Below, piece by piece: positions 22,213 through 51,986 of a stretch of 64,000 nucleotides of DNA. The stretch is taken from positions 51,812 through 115,811 of IMG/VR virus record IMGVR_UViG_3300042090_003221. One strand, given 5' to 3'. Origin of the DNA: a virus. The notes under the pieces were generated by a model, which saw nothing but the letters and a program-made list of their open reading frames with translations, did not search any database and was not told the origin of the DNA. The position numbers and the translations under genes are program-made. The first letter of the stretch is position 1. Each line of letters starts with the position of its first letter.

Positions 22213-22288
22213 TGGTGCCGCCGGGGCGGTCTCGAACCCCCGGCCTGCCGCTTACAAGGCGGCTGCTCTACCCCTGAGCTACGGCGGC
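22213..22288 (-). tRNA. tRNA-Thr(TGT)
   Basis: Acceptor GCCGCCG/CGGCGGC-ACCA; D arm GCTC/GAGC; anticodon loop CT-TGT-AA; TTCGA T loop, with one extra base in the T stem. Confidence 0.88.
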
Positions 22289-22292
22289 GAAT

Positions 22293-22367
22293 TGGCTGAA
22301 GAGGCAGGATTCGAACCTGCAGCCACTCGATTAACAGTCGAGAGCTCTACCGTTGAGCTACTCTCCA
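22293..22367 (-). tRNA. tRNA-Asn(GTT)
   Basis: Acceptor TGGAGAG/CTCTTCA-GCCA; anticodon CTCGA-CT GTT AA-TCGAG; GCAGG TTCGAAT CCTGC. Confidence 0.92.
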
Positions 22368-28009: not shown

Positions 28010-29899
28010 TCACTCCGCGGCGATCGGGGCGGCGCGGCGGCGCGCGAGCTCGACCAGCGCGGCGCGCCCGATGTGCTCCGCGTAGGCCGGAGGAATCGCC
28101 TCGCTCATCTCCGCGAGAGTCATCCAGTCGATCCCGAGAGCCTCGCTGGCCGCGGCCTTGTGGCCGCCAACCCAGACGTCGCGCGTCCCGCGGCCGCCGG
28201 CGCGCGCCGACCGGCGTCGGGCGTGGCCGCCGTAGACCCCGATCACGGGGCGCGGGTCGCGCGCGCAGACGCATTCGGGTTGCGGGATTGAGAAGCTGGC
28301 CTCGAACAGGCGACGCCGCTGCAGCCGGCAGCCCTGGGCACCGAGGCCGAACATGCAGCCGCAGAGGGTGACCGGGCTCCGCATGCTCCAAGCGGCTTCC
28401 TCGACGTTTTCAATGACCCAGAGGGCTCCGGTGGCCTGGAGCCGTTCGCGCATCGCGTCGATCAGCAAGGGGGCGCCGACAGCGCCCGGCGCGTGGCGCA
28501 TTGCTGAATATCCTTGGCAGTTGTGTACGACGATACCGTCGGCGCAGTAGGTTTCATCCTCATCAACCGAAAGGTTGAAAACCCGCTGCGCAACCGGAGA
28601 CGAAACAACGGATCGAACAAGGCCCCATCCGTGCTGGTCGTCAAACCGAAACGACCTCGCGGTTTTGGAAAACCTTACCTGGAAGTGGGGGCGCTCGCGC
28701 ACGGTTCGCCCCTCGATTTCAGTCGTGCCTATTCCCCCCGGGCGCCTCGGCTCGCTCTTAGTGATCGTCGCGCTAAGCCCGGATTGGTTCAAGAGCATGC
28801 GCACCCCAACGGCGAGGGCGCGGGAAACCGTCGTGAAGCCCGTTACGGCGCCGCCCGTGTAGCGCGGGTCGTTTTTCACGTACCCGTCGGCGAGTTGATA
28901 ACCGTCCAGAAAGGACTGGCGGTATTCGCGGCTCGCGCCGTGAAGCCAAGACGGAATCTTTTTGTTGGCGGCGCCGATGCCGAAATGCTCCTTAAGCCAA
29001 GCACATAGACGCCTTGACCCTGACCTCGCCTTGGCGGAGGTTCGCTCGATTGAAACGCTGCAACGCAAACCTGCCTCAGCCATTAGGGAGCGCAACAATT
29101 CGGCGTCTTGCTGAGCGCCGCAGATCAGCACGTCGTCGCGCGTGACCCATCCGTCTCCAACCCAATAACCGAGGAATTTGGCGAACCCCAGCGTGGCCGC
29201 GTCGGCCGCGGGCGCGCCCCTGACATCAATCATGCCGTCGGAGATTGCGTAGGCGCGCGCCGACGACGCCTCGGCCTCGGTGTCGTAAGAGCCGATGTAG
29301 ACCGTGCGGCTCCCTTTCGAGCCATACGCGCGGTAGCGTTTGACCTTTTCGTCAAAGACGTAGCCGGCCGAGCTTGGCGGAATTGGCGGGACGCTGGCTT
29401 CCGGGACTAAGGCGACGGTCGCCCACCTTTGCCCCTCCATAGCGCCGGCGTCTGTCCACTCAGCCGCGTCGGACAAGCTGACATAACCGTCCGGCGCTCG
29501 CCGGCTCGTTTTCGAGTAGAACGGGTGCTCTGCGGTCGTCGTGAGGCCCCAGTGGCCCTGCCCCTTCAGGGTTACGGTCGGCGACCACGCCGATCCAATT
29601 TGCGTCACCCTTCGCCAGCGCGCGTTGTGCGTGAGGACAAGGTCACCAACCACTACCTGCTCGATCGGCACTTGCCCGCGCGCCGTGAAAATTAGGGTTC
29701 CGGCGGGGAAGCAGGGCGGCGACGCCCACACGAGGTCAAAACCGGAGAAATCGAACTTCAGCGCGTCGGCCTGGACGAACGCGAACGGATAGCGCTTGCG
29801 TGCTTTGATATCGACGCCGACGACGCTGAACCCGGCGCGGTGGAGACCCATTCCGGCGCCGCCGGCACAGGAAAAGAGATCGAGCGCGCGGGGCTTCAC
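28010..29899 (-). CDS. Compact C5-cytosine DNA methyltransferase precursor containing an intein
   Basis: LDLFSCAGG (motif I), SPP|C (IV), IENV (VI), QRRRLF (VIII), EAIPPAY (X); GTG start 29899. Confidence 0.9.
   Translation of the reverse strand: MKPRALDLFSCAGGAGMGLHRAGFSVVGVDIKARKRYPFAFVQADALKFDFSGFDLVWASPPCFPAGTLIFTARGQVPIEQVVVGDLVLTHNARWRRVTQIGSAWSPTVTLKGQGHWGLTTTAEHPFYSKTSRRAPDGYVSLSDAAEWTDAGAMEGQRWATVALVPEASVPPIPPSSAGYVFDEKVKRYRAYGSKGSRTVYIGSYDTEAEASSARAYAISDGMIDVRGAPAADAATLGFAKFLGYWVGDGWVTRDDVLICGAQQDAELLRSLMAEAGLRCSVSIERTSAKARSGSRRLCAWLKEHFGIGAANKKIPSWLHGASREYRQSFLDGYQLADGYVKNDPRYTGGAVTGFTTVSRALAVGVRMLLNQSGLSATITKSEPRRPGGIGTTEIEGRTVRERPHFQVRFSKTARSFRFDDQHGWGLVRSVVSSPVAQRVFNLSVDEDETYCADGIVVHNCQGYSAMRHAPGAVGAPLLIDAMRERLQATGALWVIENVEEAAWSMRSPVTLCGCMFGLGAQGCRLQRRRLFEASFSIPQPECVCARDPRPVIGVYGGHARRRSARAGGRGTRDVWVGGHKAAASEALGIDWMTLAEMSEAIPPAYAEHIGRAALVELARRRAAPIAAE
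28520..29713 (-). mobile_element. 398-aa intein with a LAGLIDADG homing endonuclease
   Basis: Starts CFPAGT; TTAEHPF block B; LGYWVGDG and FLDGYQLADG; ends VFNLSV...VVHN|C. Confidence 0.93.
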
Positions 29900-30168
29900 A
29901 GCGCGCCCCCGAACAGGTCGGGACCTCGCGGCGCCCCCTTGGTCACGACGTTGATGGCGTCCTCGATGACGCCGCGGAAGGCCTCCGGATAGACGGCGAA
30001 GCAATGGGAGCCCCGGCCGCTGGCCTTCGCGCGCAGCTCCTTGGCGGGGAGGCGGCCGTAGCGGTCGACGAAGCGGTCGCGCACCGCGGCGCCGACCGCC
30101 CATGTCAATTTCGGCTCGGGCTCAAGCCCCTTTGCCTTGAAGACGTCAATCACGGTGATGCGGGTCAC
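29896..30168 (-). CDS. Hypothetical protein
   Basis: Coupled at both ends by GTGA overlaps. Confidence 0.55.
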   Translation of the reverse strand: MTRITVIDVFKAKGLEPEPKLTWAVGAAVRDRFVDRYGRLPAKELRAKASGRGSHCFAVYPEAFRGVIEDAINVVTKGAPRGPDLFGGAL

Positions 30169-44664: not shown

Positions 44665-45089
44665 TGGCGCGCGCCCTGCTCATCCTCGCAAGCGACACCC
44701 AACGCGCCACCGCGCGCCGTTGGCTCGAACAGGCGCCGCCGGGAAGCCGAATCGAGTTCAAAGGTCCGGTACGCACGCTCCCTCAGAGCGCGAAAATGTG
44801 GGCGATGCTCACCGACGTCGCGACGCAGAAAGAGCACTGCGGCCGCAGGTATGTCGCCGACGACTGGAAGATCCTGTTCATGCACGCGCTTGGGCGCGAG
44901 GCTCGCTTCATCCCAGCCCTCGACGGACACGGCTTCATTCCGATCGGCCAAAGCTCGTCGGACCTTTCGAAGGAAGAGATGAGCGACCTGATCGAATTTA
45001 TGACCGCGTGGGGCGCCGAGAAGGGCGTTGAATGGACGGATCCGGCGCTGCCGCCCGGCCTGGAATGCAACCCGAGGGACGCAGCATGA
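44664..45089 (+). CDS. ninB: NinB/Orf family recombination protein
   Basis: RTLPQSAKMWAMLTDVA; WK..F; SSDLSKEEMSDLIEF. Confidence 0.88.
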   Translation: MARALLILASDTQRATARRWLEQAPPGSRIEFKGPVRTLPQSAKMWAMLTDVATQKEHCGRRYVADDWKILFMHALGREARFIPALDGHGFIPIGQSSSDLSKEEMSDLIEFMTAWGAEKGVEWTDPALPPGLECNPRDAA

Positions 45090-45967
45090 ACATGAGAGAG
45101 ACCGTGATGTCGGCTGCGATGAAGGTCGCCTGCGTCGACACCGACGAGGCGCTCTTGCGCTCGATCGCCGTGGCCGAGCTTCAGCGCACCGACGTCAACG
45201 TTTATGCCGCGCTGACGCGCTTCACCAACGAAGTGCGCGGCGCCGGCGGCGTCTTGGCGAAGCTCATCCCCTACGGGGTGACGCGCGACCATGCGCGCGA
45301 ATATCTCAACCGCGTCGCGGCGGACATGCGCGGCGAGGGTGTGGTTCCTGCGAAAGCAGGCGACGGGGTCCGTGAAGGCTATGATAGCCATGGCGTCTTT
45401 GGCCCCGTCGATAATTCGGAAGGTGGAGGGTCCGCCGTCGTCGTGCGAGGCCAGAATACCTATGGCCCTTCGCCTTCCGATTCAGTTCCGGCGCAAGCCG
45501 GCGGGGGAGTCCTGATCGCCGATGAAAGCCACAAGCATTTTGGCTCCCCCGAACAAAGAGAAGACAAAGGGTCCGTTGGCTGTGTGGAAGTCCGGCACGG
45601 GTTTGGCCCCTCGTCTTCTCCCCCCAACAGGAACGGCGCGGTCCACCGCTCGAGTGACAACCGCCAGATGACCTCTGGCCGCGCCGTTCCTGTCCCCAAG
45701 CCTGCGCGCGGTCTGTCCGCGATGAAAGACTACGCTGCGGCGCGAACCTTGTTCGACACCTATCAAACCCGGCAAGGTCCGATTGGCGATCTTGTTTGGT
45801 CCGCGATCCCACGGATCATGTCCGAGAACACGCGTGAGGCCGCGCTGTTGAAGCTGATCTATCAGCACGCGAGGCCGGGCTACGCGAACGCCCGAGTCCG
45901 CGACGTGATCAAAGAAACCGATTTGCAGCGCATGATCAAGAAAGCGGCGGAGATCTCCAATGGTTAA
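45086..45967 (+). CDS. Tas-associated protein whose central linker is encoded by a five-unit guide array
   Basis: Coupled to ninB (ATGA); helical N- and C-terminal parts flank the array at 45361-45693. Confidence 0.65.
   Translation: MNMRETVMSAAMKVACVDTDEALLRSIAVAELQRTDVNVYAALTRFTNEVRGAGGVLAKLIPYGVTRDHAREYLNRVAADMRGEGVVPAKAGDGVREGYDSHGVFGPVDNSEGGGSAVVVRGQNTYGPSPSDSVPAQAGGGVLIADESHKHFGSPEQREDKGSVGCVEVRHGFGPSSSPPNRNGAVHRSSDNRQMTSGRAVPVPKPARGLSAMKDYAAARTLFDTYQTRQGPIGDLVWSAIPRIMSENTREAALLKLIYQHARPGYANARVRDVIKETDLQRMIKKAAEISNG
45361..45693 (+). ncRNA. Stem-loop TIGR-like array, units 1-5
   Basis: Units at 45361-45410, 45416-45480, 45502-45551, 45558-45620, 45627-45693; each is an inverted-repeat stem enclosing CCN-9nt-TG-loop-CCN-9nt-TG. 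Confidence 0.85.
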
Positions 45968-47198
45968 GCGCGCAGCAAAGAATTCTAGCGACGGGTCCGT
46001 GCTTATGCTGGCTTCACGTAAGCCTAGGATGCTGTTGGCCCGCTCGCTGGAAACCAAAACCGATAGCGGCGGGTCCGTTTCGAGAGCGATGGCCGTGAAA
46101 CCCATGGCCTGTCCACTATCGGCTCCCAAATCCAAGAAAACCGCCGACAGCGGGTCCGTAGGTGGCATGCCTCCCGCGAAGGATATGGCCCGCTCGTCGG
46201 CGGCTCCAAAATCCAAGAAAAGCGTCAGCGGCGGGTCCGGAATGTGTTTGAAGGCCAATGATCGTCTGGCCCGTCCGCTGACGCCTCCCGAACTCGACGT
46301 GATATGCACTCAAATCCAAGAGGCCCAAGTAGACCGGAAATACTCGATCCAGACCCAGGCCGGGATTATGCAGCGCCTATCCGCCCTCGCCGTCAGGGCG
46401 TGCGATCTCTCTCACGACGCCAACGAGGCGCAGCGCAAAGCCGCCTGGACGCGAGCGGAGCGCATTGTGAGCCGTGGGCTCAAGGGCGAAGTGCAAGATG
46501 ACGACGATGTCGAAATTGGCGCGACGCTCACCAAGTACTTCAAGATGGCGGCCGCCTCACTGAAGCCGGTCGCCGAATTCCGCAAAGAGATTGAACGGTT
46601 CATGAAGGCGAAGGCGGCACAGCTCCCCGGCTTCGCCATGACCGAGCGTGTCCCCAGCTTCAAGCCACTCGGATTGGCCGTCATCGTTGGCGAAGCCGGG
46701 AACCTCTCGAACTACGCGACCGAGCGCAAGCTCTGGCGGCGCCTTGGCTTCGGCATGGCGCCCGGCCACGAGGAGCATGCCTATTCGACGTGGAGGATGA
46801 TCAAGGGGTTGACAAGCGAGGATTGGACGGCCGCTGGCTACTCGCCAAAGCGCCTCGGCCAGATCTACGGCGTCGTCACGGTCCCGCTCGTCATGCACAA
46901 GGCCAAGAGCAAATATGGCGAGGTCTACGCCAAGCGCCGAGCGCGAACGCTGGAAACGCATCCGGAATGGTATCTCGACAAGAACGGCAAGCCGAAATTC
47001 GACAAGGACGGCAACCCGCGCAGCGCTCACGCGAGCATGGATGCGGCGCGCATCATGACGAAGGAATTGATTTCCGACCTGTGGTCGGAATGGAGGGGGT
47101 CCGTTTATCAGCTGGCGGAAACGCCCGCTTACCTTGTGGCCCCCTCCAAATCCATCCCCGCTGAAACGCGCCGCGTCGAAGAGGAGGAGCTGGTCTGA
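45960..47198 (+). CDS. Nop-domain/IS110-related RNA-binding protein lacking a nuclease domain (TasA-like)
   Basis: Coiled coil, then GLAVIVGEAGNLSNYATERKLWRRLGFG, Y..VY.KR, AHASMDAARIMTKELISDLWSEWR; no DEDD/RuvC or HNH motif seen. Confidence 0.8.
   Translation: MVKRAAKNSSDGSVLMLASRKPRMLLARSLETKTDSGGSVSRAMAVKPMACPLSAPKSKKTADSGSVGGMPPAKDMARSSAAPKSKKSVSGGSGMCLKANDRLARPLTPPELDVICTQIQEAQVDRKYSIQTQAGIMQRLSALAVRACDLSHDANEAQRKAAWTRAERIVSRGLKGEVQDDDDVEIGATLTKYFKMAAASLKPVAEFRKEIERFMKAKAAQLPGFAMTERVPSFKPLGLAVIVGEAGNLSNYATERKLWRRLGFGMAPGHEEHAYSTWRMIKGLTSEDWTAAGYSPKRLGQIYGVVTVPLVMHKAKSKYGEVYAKRRARTLETHPEWYLDKNGKPKFDKDGNPRSAHASMDAARIMTKELISDLWSEWRGSVYQLAETPAYLVAPSKSIPAETRRVEEEELV
45983..46284 (+). ncRNA. 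Stem-loop TIGR-like array, units 6-9
   Basis: Units at 45983-46052, 46060-46122, 46141-46203, 46222-46284; linker CTCC(C/A)AAATCCAAGAAAA repeated. Confidence 0.85.
47091..47148 (+). ncRNA. Solitary TIGR-like unit 10 in the 3' end of the tas gene
   Basis: TGGAGGGGGT-CCG-TTTATCAGC-TG-loop-CCG-CTTACCTTG-TG-GCCCCCTCCA. Confidence 0.8.
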
Positions 47199-50962: not shown

Positions 50963-51986
50963 AGACCTATGTCAGGTCTACGCCGAGCGGTTCGATGCTT
51001 GGCGCGCCATGGGTGACCGACCGCGCTATCTCTACGACGGAACCGTCGGGAGCCTATGCGACGCATTCGAGCGGCACGACGAGAGCCCGATGCGAGACGT
51101 CAAGGCGTCGACCGCGGGCTCTTACAGCGATTCTCTGAAGGTGATCCGCGGGACCGTCGCGGCGCGCGCCGTGCGCGCCGTCACGCCAATCGACGTCAAA
51201 ACATGGTTCCGGAAGTGGAAGGAACCGAAGGAGCCGGGCGGCCCGGAGCGGACCAAGCGCGCGCACGACGCAATTTCGATGCTGCGCCAGATCCTCAACT
51301 TCGGTCGTTCGCTCGGCTATGCCGAATGCGGCGAACTGTCCGAAGGCTTGTCGTCAATGCGCTTCGAACGCTCCGGCCGGCGGACAACGGCAATGACGGT
51401 CGATCACGCCCGGACGTTCATTGCCGCCGCCTTGGCGCGCGGGGACAGCCGCGGTCTTTACATGGCGATCGGCGTTGCGGCGCAATTTGAAACGATCTTG
51501 CGCCAGATAGACGTCATCGGAGAATGGGTCGACGAAGGCGCCCACGAGGTCTGGCGCGGATCTTTTACCTGGGAAGCCATCCCGGGCGGCATTCTGCGCC
51601 TGAAGACCAGCAAGACCGGCTCGCCGATCTCGCACAACCTGACCAAGCTCGAATTGCTTTGGCCGCTTATGCAGGCGGTCCCGCAAGCCGAACGTTTTGG
51701 CGCTGTCGTGAAAGGGGAGGGCGGGCTCCCAATTCGGACCCGCTCTTATCGGAAGTGGTTCGCCGAGATCCGCGATGCCGCTGGCCTGCCGAAAGACCTT
51801 TGGGCGATGGACGCGCGCGCCGGCGCGGTGACCGAAGCGCTTGACATGGGCGCCGACCTGACCGACGTCAGCCGGACCGCGACGCACTCGACCGTGACCA
51901 TGACGCGCCGCTACGACCGCGTCGCCGAGGAGTCGGCGGCGCGTGTAGCTGAGGTCCGCAAGCAGGGCCGGAGCCGCAAGCCATGA
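50811..51986 (+). CDS. int: Tyrosine recombinase / phage integrase
   Basis: ILRQID (R), KTSKT (K), MDARAG (R), ATHS (H), TRRY (Y); next to att. Confidence 0.88.
   Translation: MRSQAPGLKRRRRKDGEALYWSAAALSPKDAKRYPDAWIRLPQNATPAEIEDLCQVYAERFDAWRAMGDRPRYLYDGTVGSLCDAFERHDESPMRDVKASTAGSYSDSLKVIRGTVAARAVRAVTPIDVKTWFRKWKEPKEPGGPERTKRAHDAISMLRQILNFGRSLGYAECGELSEGLSSMRFERSGRRTTAMTVDHARTFIAAALARGDSRGLYMAIGVAAQFETILRQIDVIGEWVDEGAHEVWRGSFTWEAIPGGILRLKTSKTGSPISHNLTKLELLWPLMQAVPQAERFGAVVKGEGGLPIRTRSYRKWFAEIRDAAGLPKDLWAMDARAGAVTEALDMGADLTDVSRTATHSTVTMTRRYDRVAEESAARVAEVRKQGRSRKP

Follow-up and report, generated by a model that had tools for sequence, protein, structure and literature searches.

A probable stem-loop TIGR-TasA system on a viral contig, with guide units carried inside two overlapping genes

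The 64-kb window analysed here (64,000 nucleotides, positions 51,812 to 115,811 of the IMG/VR virus record IMGVR_UViG_3300042090_003221) contains a run of hairpins within two overlapping genes, the second of which encodes a Nop-type protein. Are these hairpins the guides of a TIGR-Tas system, or do they arise from peptide repeats, a recombination element or an RNA-modification machinery? The evidence makes it very probable that this phage contig carries a TIGR-TasA system of the stem-loop type. The original prediction, made without database searches, had proposed a programmable RNA-guided DNA-binding system of the nuclease-less TasA type; the fold and family of the protein support this proposal, in which DNA binding is assigned by analogy.

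The + strand between 45361 and 47148 carries exactly ten units, in which an outer stem encloses, in order, U-CCN, 9 nt, UG, a loop, CCN, 9 nt and UG-G. The CCN and UG elements represent box C and box D, respectively, and the 9-nt segments are the spacers. When the window was scanned over its full length, on both strands, the regular expression GTCC-N-[9 nt]-YG-[4-13 nt]-CYN-[9 nt]-TGGC gave ten matches, all on the + strand and none elsewhere, at 45368, 45430, 45509, 45571, 45641, 45995, 46073, 46154, 46235, and 47099. A relaxed scan yielded no extra units at 40–52 kb. The candidate guide RNA (tigRNA) units are as follows.

45361..45410, + strand, tigRNA unit 1, spacers TGAAGGCTA / TGGCGTCTT
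45416..45480, + strand, tigRNA unit 2, spacers CCGTCGTCG / GAATACCTA
45502..45551, + strand, tigRNA unit 3, spacers GATCGCCGA / CAAGCATTT
45558..45620, + strand, tigRNA unit 4, spacers TTGGCTGTG / GCACGGGTT
45627..45693, + strand, tigRNA unit 5, spacers CCGCTCGAG / GATGACCTC
45983..46052, + strand, tigRNA unit 6, spacers TGCTTATGC / GGATGCTGT; second box C is CTA; the 13-nt loop forms its own small hairpin
46060..46122, + strand, tigRNA unit 7, spacers TTTCGAGAG / TGAAACCCA; first box D is CG
46141..46203, + strand, tigRNA unit 8, spacers TAGGTGGCA / CGAAGGATA
46222..46284, + strand, tigRNA unit 9, spacers GAATGTGTT / ATGATCGTC
47091..47148, + strand, tigRNA unit 10, spacers TTTATCAGC / CTTACCTTG; overlaps the 3′ end of tasA; the loop is a GAAA-capped hairpin

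In all ten units, each spacer was exactly 9 nt long, with a box C before it and a box D after it, and the only box deviations were the two single-base changes in units 6 and 7. All 20 spacers differed from each other, with a mean Hamming distance of 6.7 of 9 and a minimum of 2. The ten units of fixed geometry, the same twenty spacers, and both box deviations had been listed in the original prediction, and all of them were recovered. Units 7, 8, and 9 (46060–46284) were separately found to be spaced at exactly 81 nt (27 codons) and to have near-identical linkers, with unrelated spacers and distal stems; they look like a duplicated scaffold in which the guide parts were replaced.

None of the units is intergenic. 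The genes that contain them are listed below with the core of the TasA protein.

45086..45967, + strand, companion gene, 293 residues; its start overlaps the NinB stop (ATGA) and its stop overlaps the tasA start
45960..47198, + strand, tasA open reading frame, 412 residues from the ATG that overlaps the companion stop, without a nuclease domain
46284..47117, + strand, Tas/Nop-like core of TasA, residues 109–386, a coiled-coil hairpin and a C-terminal RNA-binding domain

Units 1–5 lie within the first frame and units 6–9 and 10 within the second, all in frame, and both array regions have 0 stops in the used frame versus 2–6 in the other two forward frames. The structural model of the companion consists of a helical N-domain (residues 7–82) and a C-domain (residues 210–292), joined by a disordered linker of about residues 90–205 that is encoded by units 1–5. 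Similarly, residues 1–108 of TasA, encoded by units 6–9, were disordered in the AlphaFold2 model, in which nothing beyond the Nop core was folded. The 5′ arm of unit 10 begins at the codon of the invariant Trp378 of TasA. The location of all ten units inside open reading frames, the absence of stops from the used frame only, and the predicted disorder of the encoded segments would also be expected if the hairpins were a by-product of repeated peptides or low-complexity linkers in two proteins, that is, coding repeats and not RNA elements. However, the units in the companion linker occupy two different codon phases, so that the same nucleotide geometry encodes different peptides. The codon phase in which box D followed by an A-starting loop would give an in-frame UGA is occupied by no unit. 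Further evidence against the coding-repeat explanation came from the stems and from related loci.

Minimum free energy folding gave outer stems of about 9–20 bp in all ten units. The first three stem pairs were conserved among the units (U·G, G-C, then G-C or A-U), and stem pairs 4–7 were each represented by 3–4 pair types across the ten units. Tandem Repeats Finder returned 0 rows at the array, and Rfam gave no family above threshold and a sub-threshold chance match only, in support of the earlier expectation that repeat finders would probably miss such an array. A CRISPR array was rejected on the basis of the blank Tandem Repeats Finder result, the differing outer stems, and the lack of PADLOC matches for TasA and the companion.

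Relatives of tas were found in 88 loci, comprising 80 viral contigs and 8 bacterial genome loci, mostly of Hyphomicrobiales and relatives. These loci were scanned with the bare core motif CCN-9-TG-loop-CCN-9-TG, and a flanking stem was asked for afterwards. In 81 non-redundant loci, units with stems of 5 bp or more numbered 248 on the tas strand and 3 on the opposite one, and 49 of the 81 loci had at least two units. In a set of 108 distinct units whose loop is 4 nt long, the paired fraction of stem cells was 87.3%, compared with 50.2% in shuffled and 43–53% in slid controls, and the covariation score was 0.88 versus 0.19 after shuffling; in this set, the inner five pairs had been selected for pairing, with the pair type left free, and the outer five had not been selected. 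In many related loci, as with unit 10 here, the extreme 3′ end of tas is occupied by a unit with a 5′ arm that starts with the Trp378 TGG codon. The covarying stems, the occurrence of units outside detected coding domains and on the tas strand in many related loci, and the preservation of arms around random spacers described below are difficult to reconcile with peptide repeats, and we rejected that explanation as very unlikely. Among the 88 loci, the largest array, by a wide margin, was found in another viral contig (L024:635–3520), in which at least 25 units form three blocks around the companion and tas genes.

The closest relative of the locus (L009/L010) has the same gene order and encodes a TasA with 56% identity. 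The four linker units of L010 are orthologous to units 1–4, with 5′ and 3′ arms that are 75% and 91% identical, respectively, and that contain compensatory changes. Only 17 of the 72 spacer bases matched (24%), which is the random level. Two small GNRA hairpins flanking these units showed the same mode of conservation.

45347..45360, + strand, GNRA-tetraloop hairpin CCTGC-GAAA-GCAGG, directly 5′ of unit 1; kept in L010 by compensatory change
45488..45501, + strand, GNRA hairpin CCGGC-GCAA-GCCGG, 5′ of unit 3; CCGTC-GCGA-GACGG in L010, a compensatory change

Since compensatory changes in L010 keep both 5-bp hairpins, they look like selected RNA structures. The complete turnover of spacers within preserved scaffolds points to continuing selection on the guides and not to decay. 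This observation bears on the explanation that a genuine array has decayed, or persists only through being fixed within coding sequence, and has lost its guide function, an explanation that is consistent with the box deviations in two units (CTA and CG) and with the lack of a detected target for any guide. In view of the intact and, among homologues, highly conserved TasA core, the ten intact stems, and the replacement of spacers in preserved scaffolds relative to L010, we consider decay unlikely, with a small residual probability. The strand bias of the units and the low spacer identity to L010 also agree with the original prediction in that homologous loci keep the CCN-9-TG geometry with variable spacers. 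In a separate comparison, spacer A of unit 10, TTTATCAGC (47104–47112), and the B spacer of a unit at a distant locus, L081 (396–404), had the same sequence, with unrelated partner spacers; about 0.04 exact matches are expected by chance in the 20 × 532 comparisons, and this match may be due to chance.

The protein encoded by the second gene was then compared with known structures and families. The public gene call begins at Met24. An AlphaFold2 model built with an alignment of 63 homologous protein clusters contained a helical core at residues 109–386 with a predicted local distance difference test score of >90 over most of its length. In a Foldseek search of the PDB, the best ten matches were all TasH or TasR with a probability of 1.0. 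VIA-align gave Z 14.5 for TasH 9vzx (202 aligned residues, root-mean-square deviation 3.5), Z 14.2 for TasR 9mty (187 residues, root-mean-square deviation 2.8), Z 12.1 and 11.6 for the IS110-family proteins ISCro4 and IS621, respectively, and Z of about 7 for Nop56/58, Nop5, and Prp31. A profile of the 63 homologues matched TaTasR 9mty at E 2e-6 and TasH at E 4e-4 at the sequence level; the single sequence had no match in the PDB or PADLOC, and its identity to solved Tas proteins was 12–17%. None of the 63 family members matched the Pfam models of DEDD/RuvC (PF01548) or HNH. The Tas fold, the disordered residues 1–108, and the lack of a nuclease domain identify the protein as TasA. The description of a Nop-type protein without RuvC or HNH therefore held, and the fold comparison proposed with it ranked Tas proteins first, IS110 proteins second, and Nop proteins third; a Nop-type fold is present.

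The ranking of IS621 and ISCro4 as the next-best structures raises the alternative that the locus is an IS110-type element, in which a degenerate bridge-RNA recombinase would use the hairpins as bridge-RNA-like loops to direct recombination. Consistent with this, 17 of the 63 family members weakly matched PF02371, the IS110 C-terminal domain, the protein matched PHROG 4285 'transposase' at E 1e-7, and exonuclease, RecT, and NinB genes lie just upstream. IS110 bridge-RNA recombinases also share with TasA the coiled coil and the RNA-binding C-terminal fold, and their guide loops read both DNA strands. However, the DEDD catalytic domain of IS110 proteins is absent, residues 1–108 are disordered, and Tas structures match better. 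IS110 elements have one bridge RNA per element with a target loop and a donor loop, whereas ten symmetric units with dual 9-nt spacers are present here, and the flanking recombination genes are not kept beside tas in related loci. An IS110-type element was rejected as extremely improbable.

The Nop fold and the dual-guide box C/D layout, which resembles that of archaeal small RNAs (PMC12045711), would also fit units that guide the protein to RNA instead of DNA, as in box C/D ribonucleoproteins that act in RNA modification or translational control. The boxes found here, CCN and UG, differ from the RUGAUGA and CUGA boxes that form K-turns, and the matches to Nop5 and Prp31 were far weaker than those to Tas proteins. 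No fibrillarin, L7Ae, or methyltransferase was found among the neighbours examined. Furthermore, DNA binding has been published for TasA and TasR, and TasR was inactive on RNA (PMC12045711; bioRxiv 10.64898/2026.09.09.750476). We judged RNA targeting to be very improbable and rejected a box C/D RNA-modification guide.

The features of the locus correspond closely to those of published stem-loop TIGR-TasA systems. Stem-loop TIGR arrays with two 8–12-nt spacers, box C CCA, and box D UG have been described, in which variable palindromic stems replace the edge repeats and the loops are variable; in one case with TasA, 13 units are divided among three sub-arrays (Faure et al. 2025, PMC12045711). 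A later study catalogued 2,559 stem-loop arrays, described guides embedded in tas with the frame intact, showed TasA to be an RNA-guided transcriptional repressor, and reported CUU at the stem base as a processing boundary that is frequent but not defining (Xu et al. 2026, bioRxiv 10.64898/2026.09.09.750476). The structure of PlTasA in a complex that contains a stem-loop tigRNA as well as target DNA has also been determined (Guan et al. 2026, bioRxiv 10.64898/2026.08.11.744272). With the known members, PlTasA (Peromyscus leucopus gut contig), BlTasA (Bifidobacterium longum), and MbTasA, the present system shares a nuclease-free Nop-domain protein with a disordered N-terminus and tandem hairpins with two 9-nt spacers in CCN/UG boxes, variable palindromic stems, and loops that are sometimes hairpins. 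The class also has units upstream of tas and in frame in its 5′ and 3′ ends, sub-arrays, and a phage host, as found here. The original prediction called the system hidden, which is too strong, because stem-loop TIGR-TasA, including guides within the tas coding sequence, had already been published. Unlike the published systems, the locus lacks CUU at the stem bases, has a C-run and an A-run after most stems and a U·G closing pair in this clade, and carries half of its guides in the linker of a second, non-tas gene.

The dual-repeat systems TasR and TasH (TaTasR 9MTY, SpTasH 9VZX/9W04) have the same core structure and the same principle of dual 9-nt spacers with boxes C and D. They differ in having RuvC or HNH, a Tyr/His processing loop at the C-terminus, and guides of a fixed 36 nt in which edge and loop repeats are conserved; at the present locus, variable-length stems take the place of the edge repeats, and a guide unit encodes the C-terminal tail. 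The tasParB-tasA operons (Faure et al. 2025) resemble it in having a second gene in the operon and arrays upstream, downstream, and between genes; they differ in that Pfam and fold searches gave no ParB signal for the companion family and in that tasParB loci have dual-repeat arrays.

Several results weigh against the assignment to stem-loop TIGR-TasA. TasA itself had no Pfam match, and NCBIfam NF052498 'TIGR_Tas_endo' matched its residues 156–379 (E 3.8e-12) with a score of 46.6 bits, under the equivalog cut-off of 100. CTT was found at the stem bases of none of the ten units, in a span that reached outwards by 8 nt and inwards by 4 nt; the background is 0.10 per 12-nt window. The sequence is carried by two DNA runs of wetland metagenomes, and no RNA run was among the listed holders. 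Finally, no natural DNA target above chance was found for any guide, in a search limited by the host not being identified.

For the target search, we infer from the published 8-nt 3′ overhang and 'C-5 rule' that a target would read 5′-spacer A and then spacer B in reverse complement. The order is not stated in the text of the papers, and both orders were therefore searched, with gaps of 0–2. The ten guides had no site at ≤2 mismatches in the whole 115,811-nt record, and the eleven matches at 3 mismatches were close to the chance estimate. In the 91 loci searched (713 kb), three chance-level matches at 2 mismatches were found in addition to exact matches of guide 1; the exact guide 1 pattern occurred 3 times in IMG/VR with three different gaps, about the level expected by chance for an 18-mer. 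Conversely, 266 guides of related loci gave nothing at ≤1 mismatch in the record that contains the window. Guide 2 alone had 0 matches in 201 genomes from the order to which Xanthobacter tagetidis belongs, compared with 2 for a control pattern, a test of low power. Sites with spacer A adjacent to the reverse complement of spacer B, the search for which had been proposed earlier, were thus at chance level in every collection searched.

The composition of the spacers was distinctive. Their GC content was 50.6%, compared with 65% for the record, a value reached by 0.02% of random 9-mer samples from the record, and spacer GC content was lower than that of the locus in 34 of 40 related loci (means of 54.6% and 60.7%, respectively). 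This suggests a constraint on guide composition or AT-richer targets such as promoters or foreign elements, and points to targets away from the bulk DNA of the phage itself.

The lack of CUU at all ten stem bases indicates that maturation at this locus may differ. After eight of the ten stems (units 3–10; 45551–47160) comes a run of C and then a run of A, CC(G)AA, against a background of 0.10; this motif was defined post hoc, once it had been noticed. The sequence AAATCCA is common to four linkers (46128, 46209, 46312, and 47148). CC(G)AA could serve as a processing signal particular to this clade or could just reflect the encoded Pro-Lys-rich peptide.

The companion gene that carries units 1–5 is not described in the TIGR papers compared. 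Its product had no match in Pfam, PHROG, NCBIfam, or PADLOC and no significant fold match (best E of 1.1 by Foldseek and best Z of 4.1 by VIA-align), and its nearest neighbour in the ESM Atlas was an unnamed, mostly viral cluster. No ParB was among the fold matches, and none of 52 companion homologues matched the ParB Pfam model. Homologues nevertheless numbered 222, many of them full length. Profile searches placed the C-domain directly upstream of tas in 41 of the 88 loci and the N-domain in 28 of the 88, always on the tas strand. In all 18 non-redundant loci that have both domains, the two were in one open frame, and at least one strict unit lay between them in 13 of the 18. Other genes beside tas, including the flanking recombination genes, were not conserved in related loci, which suggests that the companion, tasA, and the arrays travel together as a module. 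A complex prediction for the TasA core and the companion C-domain gave a score of 0.02, which is no evidence either way. We propose only tentatively, and with the odds against it, that TIGR-TasA of this clade is a two-protein module in which the companion is a required partner of TasA and the guides are renewed by precise spacer replacement inside conserved hairpin scaffolds. The companion may, for example, help to produce the guides, link their release to translation, or serve as an effector. To our knowledge, no adaptation machinery for such spacer replacement has been described.

The upstream neighbours of the locus are genes for an exonuclease, an HNH protein, RecT, and NinB, and the downstream neighbours are small open reading frames and an HNH gene. 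The locus is on the same strand as the exonuclease, RecT, and NinB genes and is translationally coupled with them. Given the ATGA and ATG/TAA overlaps among NinB, companion, and tasA, and a promoter and terminator scan inside the locus that gave nothing above the shuffled background, these three genes are most likely transcribed as one RNA. The earlier description of the locus as part of the early operon of a prophage is only partly substantiated, by the same-strand coupling with the exonuclease, RecT, and NinB genes and by an integrase-like gene in the record, which is a viral contig.

On the model of published relatives, from which transcription and processing, a 2:1 protein-to-RNA complex, dual-strand DNA binding, and repression are taken, the ten hairpin units would be released from the common transcript as tigRNAs. 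Each tigRNA would have an outer stem closed by the conserved U·G pair and two 9-nt spacers, each with box C (CCN) on one side and box D (UG) on the other. Two TasA molecules, each with the Nop-like coiled coil and the C-terminal domain but no nuclease, would act as a dimer that holds one tigRNA via its two box C/D pairs, and each spacer would pair with a different strand of an 18-bp DNA site. The complex would then bind and block transcription or another DNA transaction without cleavage. For the phage, the most likely role would be to silence genes that belong to the host or to competing mobile elements.

Since the class, its stem-loop form, intragenic guides, and repressor activity have all been published, the locus adds little as a further instance of TIGR-TasA. 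It is of value as a comparative case for spacer renewal, with scaffolds that are 75–91% identical and spacers that are unrelated in two phages, and for the study of stem-loop guide maturation where CUU is absent. It also raises the questions of whether the conserved companion, which carries half of the guides in frame, belongs to the machinery, and of what the guides target, given spacers of about 50% GC in a phage of 65% GC.

Two further features were observed elsewhere in the window, both on the − strand. A 697-residue open reading frame at 28010–30103 contains Hint and LAGLIDADG domains and represents an intein-bearing phage gene, and adjacent tRNA-Thr(TGT) and tRNA-Asn(GTT) genes lie at 22213–22367.

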